DNA of 64,000 bases. Origin: Octopus vulgaris (lineage: Eukaryota). The first letter of the stretch is position 1, and each line of letters opens with the position of its first letter. Where the stretch lies: NCBI GenBank assembly GCA_951406725.2, contig OX597827.1:52328001-52392000 (forward strand), read 5' to 3'. Below are positions 4,375-36,035 of the stretch, piece after piece. Both the position numbers and the translations under genes were made by a program. The notes beneath the pieces were generated by a model, which saw nothing but the letters and a program-made list of their open reading frames with translations, had not been told where the DNA came from and did not search any database.

Positions 4375-4449
4375 AACATTCCTAGAGAGATGGTGTCAGA
4401 CAATGTGGTGCTTTGGACTGACGCAAGTCATGTGGAGTATCTTCCTGTG
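4375..4449 (+). CDS. CPEB4: Candidate 75-nt phase 0-0 exon of the CPEB gene (NIPREMVSDNVVLWTDASHVEYLPV)
   Basis: Long pyrimidine tract ending ttcttctggcag, 25 open codons, perfect gtaagt donor; phase 0 matches the next exon (6899). Peptide not recognised from vertebrate CPEBs. Confidence 0.7.
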
Positions 4450-6898: not shown

Positions 6899-6998
6899 GA
6901 CCGAGGAAATAATTTTGACAGCATGCGCTTCACAGGTTTAGAGAGCCGGCTGTTGGATTTAATGAGGAGTAACACTGAGTCTCATGAGCACTACAAAG
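6899..6998 (+). CDS. CPEB4: CPEB exon, conserved pre-RRM block (DRGNNFDSMRFTGLESRLLDLMRSNTESHEHYK), phase 0-1
   Basis: actttcag acceptor, gtgagt donor, 100 nt; resembles the vertebrate CPEB2-4 block DRSRxxDxxxxHSLExSLxDxMRxxxxxLKG. Confidence 0.9.
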
Positions 6999-14975: not shown

Positions 14976-16494
14976 GCCACTGATATGCTTCAGTCATGTT
15001 AGACTTTGTTAGTATAACATTGTCTATGCAAACCTGCTTTACTCAGTCTTAGTATTTTTGAAAACACCGGTTTTATTGATTATTTATTATCTTAATTATT
15101 TTCCCTATTTATCTAGGCATTGATTGCAAAAAGGATTATTTTCTCCTTGGTTTCATCATATTCAGTTTGAGATAATGATAGATTTTTTTTTTCCCAATTT
15201 GAAACTGTTACCAAAACTTTTTCCAGTTGTACATGTGTATCAATTCTCTAGTTGCTTTATAATACCACTAACATCTTCCTTTTCTTTTTTTCTTTTTATA
15301 TAGAATCTGTTATTTAGATATAATTTTTTTTTATGTATATACTTCAGCATGACTATACAAGTGCAAAAGATAAGAAAAATTTGGAGAGAATCTTATACTT
15401 TCCAATCTTACTACTTCACTTCCTTCCCTTATGTATTTATCCCTTATGTATTTAAGTTTATTCAAGGAGCAGCTCTTTTTCAAGTCTGTTTCAATTGATG
15501 CATACACAGCAGTGTGTGATATGTGTCATTTAAATATTCACAAAACTGAATGGTTTTATTTAGTGATTAATGAACAGTGAAAAACATTGCATACATTGGA
15601 TCACAATTTTTATTCTTTTATTAGTTTTAGGTATTGGACTGGGGTCATGCTTTTCTGCCATGTTCAAAGGTTTTAGTGTATCATATTGACTTCAGTAACT
15701 ATTTTAGTCTGATACTTATTTTAGTGATTGTTTTTTTTTTTTATTGAATGGTTGAGGAATGCAACTCAAGACACCAGTATACACAGACATACACATTCTC
15801 ACACACAACCAAACTTATATACCTGCAAGAGGTTGCATACAGTTTCTGTTTGCCTAATTCTACTTACAAGGTGCCACACCATGGGACCAAATTCAGAACT
15901 ACATGGCTACGATTCAAACTTCTTTCCCTCATGGCTATGCCATGATGTTGACAGAATTTAAATATCTTAGAAGTTAGATGACATTAAAAAGTATAGAAGT
16001 GATTTTTATAACATTTCTTAACATTCCTTAGTAATTGCAGAAAAATAGTTTCAAATCATACAGCTAATTACTTCCTTTTCATTAGTTAGTTTTTAAGTTT
16101 ATAACGCATGCAGGTTTTGGCTGATCTGCTTTCTTGGCAGCTCTAGAAACTAACTTGAAGATTCTTGAAGATTGATGTTAACAGGTGGGAATCTTAAGAT
16201 TTCTTCAATGTATATTAATTTGTCATTTTTCAAGCTTAATGTGCACCATATGCAGAGTATACAGGAAGATATGCACAACAATTTTTTTTTTTTTTGCATT
16301 GGGAAAGGAAAGTGGTGACCCTTCCAATTTTTTAATTTCATGTATATAGTCTACAATTTTTACATATTCTTTGTTTTTCCACCTGTTAATTACATACACA
16401 CATGCACATGCATATAGTGTGGTTTTTGTGTATGTGTTCATATGTGCGGTGTTAAATCACTAAAGTTTTACAATTTCTACTTGGCTTACTGCAG

Positions 16495-16518
16495 CACGTG
16501 CTTACGGACGAAGAAGAG
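16495..16518 (+). CDS. CPEB4: 24-nt microexon encoding ARAYGRRR, phase 1-1
   Basis: ttggcttactgcag|CACGTGCTTACGGACGAAGAAGAG|gtattt; in the phase set by the flanking exons it reads A-R-A-Y-G-R-R-R-(G), 7/8 identical to the vertebrate CPEB4 microexon ARTYGRRR. Confidence 0.93.
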
Positions 16519-16936
16519 GTATTTTCACAATTTTTTCACACATTCCTTTTATATTCTTATTTATATCCCTACCATTCTAGAGCCCTGTTTTGGTTATCTG
16601 TCCCTTCAGCTCCTTTGCTTTCACACTGGTTGTTTTTCTGTTTTCATTCTAAATATGAATTTAAAAAATGTTGTAGTATTTTTGTTATCCAATTTCTCTT
16701 TCTTTCTCTTTCCTCCTCTCTCTTTCCTCCACTCTATTATTTCTGGATTTTTGTTGGTTCATGTTTGTTGTTAATGTTTTACGCATGACTTTGGAAGTTT
16801 TCTGTTCTTTGCTAGATCTGGCTGGGAAAGAATTATTCGAGCGATAAAGTACTTCAAATCATATCTGGAGAAAGATCTATTTAATATTTCCCTTGGAAAG
16901 GATTGAAAGCATTTAAATCTTAGATACAATTGCTTA

Positions 16937-25744: not shown

Positions 25745-26500
25745 CCCTTCTGAGAGATGACTCTGCTCGATATCTAAGAAGGGTGTTGGTAGAAACTCCA
25801 TGTATTCTACTCAGTGCGAGCTTTGGGCACATAAAAGGTGCAATGCTATCAAAGAAAGGTTAATGGAGAATAAAGTCTTTGTGTGTGGCAAATGTGCAGG
25901 TACAATAAGCACTAAAAAGGCACAGACAATGGGCTCCTTCAAATGCTGGTGGGTAGGGATCATTGGAAGTAGTGGATAGCTTCTGTTACCAAGGAAACCA
26001 AATTAGCAGTGTTGGAGGAAGTTCTGAAAGAGTAGTTGCTAGGATAAGAACTGGCTGGACAAAGTTCAGAGAGCTTCTGCTTTTGTCGGTAACTAAGGGC
26101 CTCTCCCTCAGAGTGAAAGGCATAATGTATGATGCCTGTGTATGTACAGCTATGTTACATGGCTGTGAAACATGGACTTTGACTACAGAGGACTTGTGAA
26201 GGCTTGAAAGAAATGAAGCCGGTATGCTCCGCTGGATAAGTAATGTCAGTGTGCATGCACAACAGAGTGTAAATGATTTAAGAGGAAAACTGGGTATAAG
26301 AGGCATCAGATGTTGTGTACAAGAGAGAAGACTGTTGGTTTGGTCATGTGATGTGTATGGATGAGGAAAGCTGTATAAAGAAGTGCTGAGCTCTAATTGT
26401 GGAGGGTACCAGTGGAGGGGGTAGACCCAAGAAGATGTGGGACAAAGTAGTGAGAAAGGATCTTCAGATATTGGGCCTCACTGAGGAAATGACCAGAAGG
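25745..26500 (+). mobile_element. RTE LINE fragment (post-RT region), sense orientation
   Basis: ORF 25963-26199 EVVDSFCY...ARIRTGWTKFRELL...MLHGCETW, then GHV..M and GRPKKMWD. Confidence 0.9.
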
Positions 26501-26598: not shown

Positions 26599-26781
26599 GA
26601 AAGTCCCCATTTGGTTTCAATGAAGATAATCATCTGCTTGACGATACAAGTCTGGACCAAACTGTTCCCAGTCTGAGTTCTCCTGCCCGTGGTTCCCCCA
26701 ATCCTCCAACTGCTCAGGAGAGGTTGGAGCGTTTTTCACGGAAAGTCTTTGTTGGAGGTTTACCCCCAGATATTGATGAAG
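26599..26781 (+). CDS. CPEB4: CPEB exon, linker and start of RRM1 (GKSPFGFNEDNHLLDD...ERLERFSRKVFVGGLPPDIDE), phase 1-1
   Basis: tctttatttcag acceptor, 183 nt open, RNP2 motif KVFVGGL; weak donor G|gttcaa. Confidence 0.96.
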
Positions 26782-27794: not shown

Positions 27795-27884
27795 AGGAGA
27801 TTACATCAGCATTCCGACGTTTTGGTCCTTTAGTGGTTGATTGGCCTCACAAAGCTGAGAGCAAGTCTTATTTTCCACCTAAAG
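27795..27884 (+). CDS. CPEB4: CPEB exon, RRM1 (EEITSAFRRFGPLVVDWPHKAESKSYFPPK), 90 nt, phase 1-1
   Basis: T-run+ag acceptor, gtaagc donor; near-invariant CPEB2-4 peptide. Confidence 0.98.
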
Positions 27885-28894: not shown

Positions 28895-29013
28895 GCTATT
28901 GCTTTCTGCTGTTTCAAGATGAAATGTCTGTGCAGTCATTGATTGAAGCCTGCATCACTGATGATGATAAACTATACTGGTGTGTGTCCAGTCCTACTAT
29001 GAAAGATAAACCT
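28895..29013 (+). CDS. CPEB4: CPEB exon, RRM1 (GYCFLLFQDEMSVQSLIEACITDDDKLYWCVSSPTMKDKP), phase 1-0
   Basis: ttctttgttag acceptor, gtaagt donor, 119 nt; inside ORF 28867-29130. Confidence 0.98.
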
Positions 29014-29644
29014 GTAAGTACAGCAAAAGTTGATTTCCTAAAGAGACAACAGGAGATGGGTCCAGGACTAGGTTGGAAACTGAATTCTTACAACAAACAT
29101 GACATTGTTATTGTACAACAGGATACATAAATATTTTCTAAGGCTTAATTTCTATATCACTGTCTACCCTGTTACCACAGTGTATATATTATAATAGTTT
29201 TATGGTTTACTGTTTTACCTCTCGTTTCAATTCTTTCAGTTCTCAATTGAAATTTACTGAAGTAAAATTATTCATTAAATTTATTTTTCTCCAATTCTGT
29301 ATTGTTAAATCATTTCCATTACCTTTCTGTTTCTTAAAAACAAAAAGGTATTTAAAGGTAACAAACAAGAAAATTAATTAAAAAAAGTCAATGACTCAAA
29401 CTTCAAGATTATATTTCTATGAAAATTCCATTGCACATGTAGAGTTTTCTGACTAATTTTAAAAAAATAATTTCTTTAAAATTCTATTTTGTAAAGTAAA
29501 TAGTTCTTTTAAAAGGCAGCTAATTTCTATAAAATAGTGACAGACTAAATATTTATTATCCTTTTATTTCTCAGAGTTCAAAAAAAATATCAAATTGACA
29601 TCTTCCTCTCTAAAATAAAAATTACCTTTTATTTATTTTTTTAG

Positions 29645-29759
29645 GTCCAAATTAGACCATGGAACTTGAGTGATTCAGATTTTGTGATGGATGGTAGCCA
29701 ACCATTGGATCCGCGTAAAACAATATTTGTTGGTGGAGTTCCAAGACCACTAAGAGCAT
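29645..29759 (+). CDS. CPEB4: CPEB exon, RRM1/RRM2 junction (VQIRPWNLSDSDFVMDGSQPLDPRKTIFVGGVPRPLRA), phase 0-1
   Basis: tttttag acceptor, gtaagt donor, 115 nt. Confidence 0.98.
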
Positions 29760-31242: not shown

Positions 31243-31424
31243 TGGAGTTAGCTTTGATCATGGATCGTCTTTATGGAGGTGTTTGTTATGCAGGCATTGA
31301 CACTGATCCTGAATTAAAATACCCTAAAGGAGCTGGCCGTGTAGCTTTCTCAAACCAGCAAAGTTACATTGCTGCAATCAGTGCTCGCTTTGTTCAACTG
31401 CAACATGCCGATATTGACAAGAGG
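31243..31424 (+). CDS. CPEB4: CPEB exon, RRM2 (LELALIMDRLYGGVCYAGIDTDPELKYPKGAGRVAFSNQQSYIAAISARFVQLQHADIDKR), phase 1-0
   Basis: ctctttttcag acceptor, gtgagt donor, 182 nt; inside ORF 31242-31466. Confidence 0.98.
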
Positions 31425-35807: not shown

Positions 35808-36035
35808 GTCGAGGTGAAGCCTTACGTCTTAGATGACCAAATGTGTGATGAGTGTCAAGGAGCTCGCTGTGGGGGAAAATTTGCCCCCTTCTTCTGTGCC
35901 AATGTGACTTGTCTGCAGTACTATTGTGAGAATTGTTGGGCCACCATTCACACACGGCCTGGCCGAGAGTTTCACAAGCCACTTGTCAAAGAAGGGGCTG
36001 ACCGACCACGGGCTGTCCCTTTCCGATGGTGCTAG
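35808..36035 (+). CDS. CPEB4: CPEB terminal coding exon, ZZ-type zinc finger to TAG stop
   Basis: gtgttgtag acceptor; VEVKPYVLDDQMCDECQGARCGGKFAPFFCANVTCLQYYCENCWATIHTRPGREFHKPLVKEGADRPRAVPFRWC*. Confidence 0.98.
   Translation, partial: VEVKPYVLDDQMCDECQGARCGGKFAPFFCANVTCLQYYCENCWATIHTRPGREFHKPLVKEGADRPRAVPFRWC

Follow-up and report, generated by a model that had tools for sequence, protein, structure and literature searches.

The locus considered here raises the question whether a segment of 24 nt, lying inside an intron of 19,600 nt, is a genuine exon of an octopus gene for an RNA-binding protein, how old such an exon would be and what it might do. The window, i.e. the whole stretch of DNA that was analysed (64,000 nt of Octopus vulgaris), contains nine coding exons of this gene, with AG/GT ends on all of them. 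A sequence-only reading had placed a microexon at 16495-16518, preceded by AG, followed by GTATTT and in phase 1 on both sides, and each of these points was confirmed in the sequence. The features of the gene in the window are as follows.

4375-4449, + strand: coding exon, 75 nt, phase 0-0
6899-6998, + strand: upstream flanking exon, 100 nt, with the conserved LE..L.D.MR motif; phase 0 in, phase 1 out
16455-16494, + strand: 3' splice-site region; previous AG at -31, CTAA at -35, UGC at -5
16495-16518, + strand: cassette microexon, 24 nt, phase 1-1, encoding ARAYGRRR (sequence, gene models, contig)
16519-16524, + strand: 5' splice site GTATTT, off consensus at +4 to +5
26599-26781, + strand: downstream flanking exon, 183 nt, with GKSP, acidic patch and start of RRM1; phase 1 in, phase 1 out
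27795-27884, + strand: coding exon, RNA-binding region
28895-29013, + strand: coding exon, RNA-binding region
29645-29759, + strand: coding exon, RNA-binding region
31243-31424, + strand: coding exon, RNA-binding region
35808-36035, + strand: last coding exon, Cys/His ZZ-type domain and stop

By its predicted domains, two RRMs and a ZZ domain, this gene is a member of the CPEB2/3/4 (Orb2) subfamily; CPEB proteins regulate the translation of mRNA. Pfam families PF00076, PF16367 and PF16366 were found on the matching protein, and over 257 aa the octopus sequence is 88-93% identical to Danio CPEB4, Labrus CPEB2, the amphioxus protein and fly Orb2. About 16 kb ahead of the window (from G000:C14:52309941) sits the large N-terminal exon, which agrees with the proteins of O. 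vulgaris (620 of 620 residues), O. sinensis (619) and O. bimaculoides (615). The downstream exon 26599-26781 has a single match in the octopus genome, and its top database match is the O. bimaculoides protein. The octopus gene is the pro-orthologue of CPEB2, CPEB3 and CPEB4 together, not of CPEB4 alone. When the microexon is included, eight arginine-rich residues are added to a disordered linker, 48 residues ahead of the first RNA-binding domain.

Several other observations were made on this gene. The upstream exon carries, at 6930-6975 of the window, the LE..L.D.MR motif, which is conserved from cnidarians to fish; we take it to be the nuclear export signal of CPEB3/4. The 75-nt exon 4375-4449 is also present in 992-aa relatives (P0005), and Haliotis has an optional segment of 15 aa at its place. 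The O. vulgaris model CAI9733033.1 reads into an intron (29014-29127) and ends early, giving a protein of 855 aa that lacks the ZZ domain. Open frames at about 25760-26200 resemble what is presumably a LINE remnant. In the UniRef entry A0A0L8GGJ2 of O. bimaculoides this sequence forms the start and is joined by splicing to the downstream exon, probably through mis-annotation.

The microexon is a real spliced exon. All nine exons spliced together encode the C-terminal 371 aa found in O. vulgaris CAI9733032.1 and in the X1 isoforms of O. sinensis and O. bimaculoides. Leaving out the microexon yields the end of the X2 isoforms known from the last two species (X1 and X2 are XP_029645168-70 in O. 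sinensis and XP_052828706/7 in O. bimaculoides). The RefSeq isoforms of these two species thus differ by exactly the eight residues of the microexon; its skipping is known from their X2 models only. The exon had been described as hidden and as one that gene predictors would probably miss. This was wrong, as it is already annotated in public models of three Octopus species, RefSeq models among them. Transcript evidence comes from run X13, taken as RNA by guess and carrying no tissue label. A contig of 126 letters (depth 3.9) from this run has a loose end of 30 letters, in which 8 nt from the end of the upstream exon are followed by 22 nt from the start of the microexon, and continues into the downstream exon. 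The contig thereby joins the three exons. The downstream exon was searched in four runs and a contig was obtained from one of them; the blank runs carry no evidence.

The peptide ARAYGRRR is identical at seven of eight positions to the corresponding peptides of gar CPEB4 and Labrus CPEB2. The proposed equivalence to the neuronal microexon of vertebrate CPEB4, which has been tied to autism, holds in that the two exons are homologous. It fails for a counterpart restricted to CPEB4, since CPEB2, CPEB3 and CPEB4 each carry the exon (PMC11711090, PMC4767366). Like the vertebrate exon (me4 of CPEB4, B region of CPEB2 and CPEB3), the octopus exon is 24 nt long, optional and placed directly before the exon that enters RRM1, 45-48 aa away. 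In contrast to vertebrates, where GRSS or GHSS follows, the octopus peptide is followed by GKSP, the octopus protein has no dense N-terminal histidine cluster, and the octopus models show no second optional exon upstream. Neural inclusion has been measured for the vertebrate exon, whereas the octopus one is known from sequence, models and one contig.

To follow the exon across animals, 30 protein clusters picked for taxonomic spread were compared; outside Octopus the comparison is one of annotated protein models. Isoforms differing by 8 aa at the junction were found in 13 of the 30 clusters, and a Labrus pair was added from a separate database match. The total is 21 isoform pairs in 18 genera of seven phyla, each pair differing by exactly 8 aa.

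Mollusca: Octopus, Liolophura, Mercenaria, Ruditapes, Dreissena
Brachiopoda: Lingula
Nemertea: Lineus
Arthropoda: Schistocerca, Penaeus, Tachypleus, Argiope, Larinioides
Chordata: Branchiostoma, Clavelina, Labrus
Hemichordata: Ptychodera, Glandiceps
Xenacoelomorpha: Symsagittifera

This distribution bears out the earlier suggestion that the microexon is older than the split between protostomes and deuterostomes. Phase 1 is compatible with all 21 pairs; in four of them the junction residue rules out phase 0, and three of these four also exclude phase 2. Identity to the octopus peptide amounts to 6-8 of 8 residues in 13 pairs, to 4-5 in five pairs and to 1-2 in three bivalves. An identity of 6-7 of 8 residues is common to octopus, chiton, brachiopod, spiders, horseshoe crab, locust, amphioxus, hemichordates and fish. 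The acoel and tunicate peptides share four of eight residues with that of octopus and, judged by this resemblance, are weaker cases than the other pairs. In the clams Mercenaria, Ruditapes and Dreissena (P0161, P0162, P0164) the optional 8-aa piece is kept with an altered peptide (ALNFKQKL, ARNFRQLL), so that length and optionality appear to outlast the arginine cluster. In many carriers (P0007, P0145, P0068, P0175, P0187, P0194, P0399) the microexon is immediately preceded by one or two extra segments, which several of these carriers show to be optional and which resemble the vertebrate C region; none is seen in the octopus models. Divergent relatives (P0242, P0251, P0257, P0261, P0265-P0268) show basic clusters before KSPFF or KLPFF.

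Apparent absences were counted on annotated proteins, often one per genus. The motif was found in 8 of 12 chelicerate genera, in one of 26 insect genera and in none of the genera examined among gastropods (11), echinoderms (8) and pteriomorph bivalves (5), and these counts suggest loss in the groups that lack it. It is also absent from the three Drosophila proteins examined. Drosophila Orb2 belongs to the same subfamily (88% identity over the 257 C-terminal residues in D. pseudoobscura) but differs in having no microexon motif and a linker that has diverged over its whole length. Among insects lacking the motif, other insertions occur at the same junction (P0423, P0425, P0429, P0426, P0419, P0180): 10 aa in three mosquitoes (absent from Toxorhynchites X2), about 19 aa in Cloeon and 20 aa in Bemisia X1. 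An origin before Bilateria was considered and rejected, the motif being found in none of the six named cnidarian genera examined; a longer basic segment nearby was compared across species only. This segment of cnidarian CPEB2-4 proteins (P0442-P0444, P0438-P0440), 15-16 aa near the junction site, is present in Stylophora and Acropora and absent in the Actinia isoform X2. It is possibly an optional exon older than Bilateria, to judge from these proteins.

Could the resemblance to vertebrates be fortuitous, or have arisen more than once? That the octopus exon is a chance intronic match or an artefact of annotation has a negligible probability. The 19,600-nt intron does offer 76 AG-(24 nt)-GT sites, of which 27 are open in phase 1. 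The splice pattern on its own is not rare; the peptide is the rare part, a 7/8 identity to the gar CPEB4 8-mer having P ~8e-10 per in-frame site and 6e-8 over the 76 sites. This value and the presence of the exon in models of three Octopus species argue against chance, and the spliced X13 contig refutes it. Repeated origin of 24-nt exons at a hot-spot junction, followed by convergence on a basic peptide, is in our view very improbable. Recurrent gain of exons at equivalent positions has been reported as common (bioRxiv 2026.09.05.749416), unrelated insertions sit at this very junction in mosquitoes, Cloeon and Bemisia, and the acoel, tunicate and bivalve peptides are identical to that of octopus at 1-4 of 8 positions only. 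Against this stand the equal length, the compatible phase and the 6-7/8 identity throughout the core set from octopus to fish; convergence would be limited to the divergent cases and is unlikely for the core set. We are therefore highly confident, as far as such comparisons go, in a single origin of the microexon. Given the 7/8 match between octopus and gar CPEB4, one origin at the base of Bilateria followed by several losses is likely and would be the most economical account; with the acoel pair, the exon may date from before the protostome/deuterostome split by a further step.

The regulation of the exon is well described in vertebrates, where it is neural and dependent on SRRM3/4 (PMC11711090 and PMC13281805). 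For CPEB4, dependence on SRRM4 was established by knock-down and overexpression (PMC11711090). The 24-nt exons of mouse Cpeb4 and Cpeb2 are listed as eMIC-dependent in table S2 of PMC8797185, and the zebrafish cpeb4 exon, likewise of 24 nt, has a PSI of 87.8 in neural tissue versus 3.8 in muscle according to the supplement of PMC12626424. The octopus genome encodes the Pfam domain SRRM_C (PF15230; 32.6 bits for a cut-off of 27), with Srrm234-like eMIC exons at G000:C25:37317492-37341900. A candidate for the second half lies 24 kb downstream and carries the motif RKRP.PY, presumably the mark of the second eMIC exon half. On the strength of these matches, both putative eMIC exon halves of Srrm234 are present in the octopus genome.

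The 3' splice site of the octopus microexon is an atypical eMIC target. Within 40 nt upstream there is one UGC only, at -5, overlapping the acceptor, and the AG-exclusion zone is 27 nt, versus 25-105 nt for the eight other exons of the gene. No enrichment of YCAY, UGC or GCAUG was found around the microexon against the flanking introns; the four YCAY in the 120 nt downstream are reached by 17% of 974 intron windows. As a sign of control by Nova or Rbfox these motifs were rejected. About a quarter of SRRM3/4 targets have no UGC (bioRxiv 2024.09.17.613571), so the atypical octopus site weakens eMIC control and does not refute it. The upstream exon has the consensus donor AAG|GTGAGT and the microexon the non-consensus donor GTATTT, an arrangement described for fly eMIC exons (PMC8797185); the donor of the downstream exon is also non-consensus. 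We propose that the microexon would be included in octopus neurons through the splicing factor Srrm234 and its eMIC domain, which homology to the vertebrate exon makes fairly probable.

In human CPEB4 the arginines of the exon bind a histidine cluster and keep condensates reversible (PMC11711090). In octopus, a dense cluster of this kind is absent, with at most 4 His per 24 aa versus 8-9 in four fish CPEB4 proteins; the other invertebrate carriers have 2-5, and Labrus CPEB2 has only 4 as well. Over 26 chosen proteins, kinship being ignored, no co-variation of the exon with the histidine cluster was apparent. What stays constant is a cluster of basic residues together with an aromatic one, flanked on either side by a slightly acidic segment. 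Three or four R/K are present in the peptides of 18 of the 21 pairs, including five genera in which no serine follows, and the optional piece of the three heterodont bivalves has only two. As this basic-aromatic cluster is constant, a sticker role in condensation or in RNA contact is favoured. The eight residues are predicted to act as a basic-aromatic sticker tuning CPEB condensation, a function to which we give an even chance. The partner in invertebrates would be something other than a dense histidine cluster, for example the scattered histidines and aromatic residues of the Q-rich N-terminus, or the downstream acidic patch.

Two other readings bear on regulation and function. The main rival to a sticker is a phosphorylation switch, in which the arginines at -3 to -5 of the GKSP serine create a kinase site that is lost on skipping. 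In mouse CPEB3, PKA and CaMKII phosphorylate the serines that follow the exon, but not in its absence (PMC4767366). The downstream serine is kept in 10 of the 18 genera, in all nine invertebrate ones, octopus included, as S-P; R-x-x-S-P at GKSP would be, we assume, a motif of the DYRK/CLK type. Proline at +1 is disfavoured by PKA and CaMKII, however, and eight of the 18 genera lack the serine, five of which (Liolophura, Penaeus, Branchiostoma, Clavelina and Symsagittifera) keep the basic cluster. Moreover, the dissolution of CPEB4 condensates in neuronal cells was independent of phosphorylation (PMC11711090). Neither vertebrate partner, dense histidine cluster or downstream serine, is generally conserved. 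We regard the switch as unlikely, although it keeps some weight. A cassette exon of ancestral age used in invertebrates with no neural restriction, neural control being gained in chordates or vertebrates, seems still less probable to us. It would fit the atypical eMIC signature in octopus and a 20-species survey, including O. bimaculoides, amphioxus and a centipede, that does not name CPEB in its main text (bioRxiv 10.64898/2026.09.05.749416). That survey demanded a neural exon in an insect and in nine species in all, and the scarcity of the motif among insect genera could account for CPEB being left out. Seven phyla retain both isoforms, which suggests regulation. The explanation to which we incline slightly combines an ancestral CPEB2-4 exon, neural inclusion through the Srrm234 eMIC and a condensation sticker.

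The octopus exon was already annotated and represents a known vertebrate microexon in new lineages. The RefSeq X1 and X2 models of O. bimaculoides and O. sinensis contain the very same exon; they were generated automatically and are silent on its homology, age and tissue. The deep ancestry of the CPEB microexon, likely as it is from these proteins, was not found in print in the literature searched. No statement on a CPEB microexon outside vertebrates was found in the literature searched, which included PMC8011179 and extended neither to the 2019 founding paper nor to the survey datasets. The main text of the 20-species survey has no occurrence of CPEB or orb2 (its datasets may list the exon) and names only APBB and MADD as bilaterian-ancestral neural microexons (bioRxiv 10.64898/2026.09.05.749416). 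Like the CPEB exon, those of APBB1/2/3, with 6 nt, and of MADD, with 9 nt, are short, in frame and shared by protostomes and deuterostomes. They differ in that their neural inclusion was measured across species, whereas the CPEB exon is known from sequence evidence, is longer, lies in a disordered linker and was apparently lost in most insects examined. The lineages which that survey asks of an ancestral exon, a vertebrate, an insect and both outgroup lineages, are represented here by the protein pairs of Labrus, Schistocerca, Branchiostoma and Octopus; Schistocerca is outside its set of species. Torres-Mendez 2019 reportedly surveyed invertebrate microexons and would be the likeliest prior report of the CPEB exon.

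By analogy with vertebrates, the CPEB microexon would likely be used in neurons outside this group too. Our boldest reading, tentative and to be held with some doubt, is that it may be a third, unreported bilaterian-ancestral neural microexon, which the last ancestor in common with acoels would already have possessed. The arginine sticker would predate the histidine cluster and would first have served another partner. The exon would later have disappeared from flies and the majority of other insects, from gastropods and from echinoderms, the functional-amyloid Orb2 lineage included. Programmes of neural microexons are thought to be almost wholly rewired between phyla, and for fly and mouse four exons at equivalent positions are given in PMC8797185. 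A third ancestral case, relevant to disease and still optional from acoels to octopus, would be a rare fixed point. The carriers and non-carriers offer natural experiments: arginines with no histidine cluster, linkers with no serine, a length kept with the arginines gone in clams, and apparent loss in flies and sea slugs. If this reading is true, the arginine sticker would be older than the histidine cluster that it buffers in human CPEB4.
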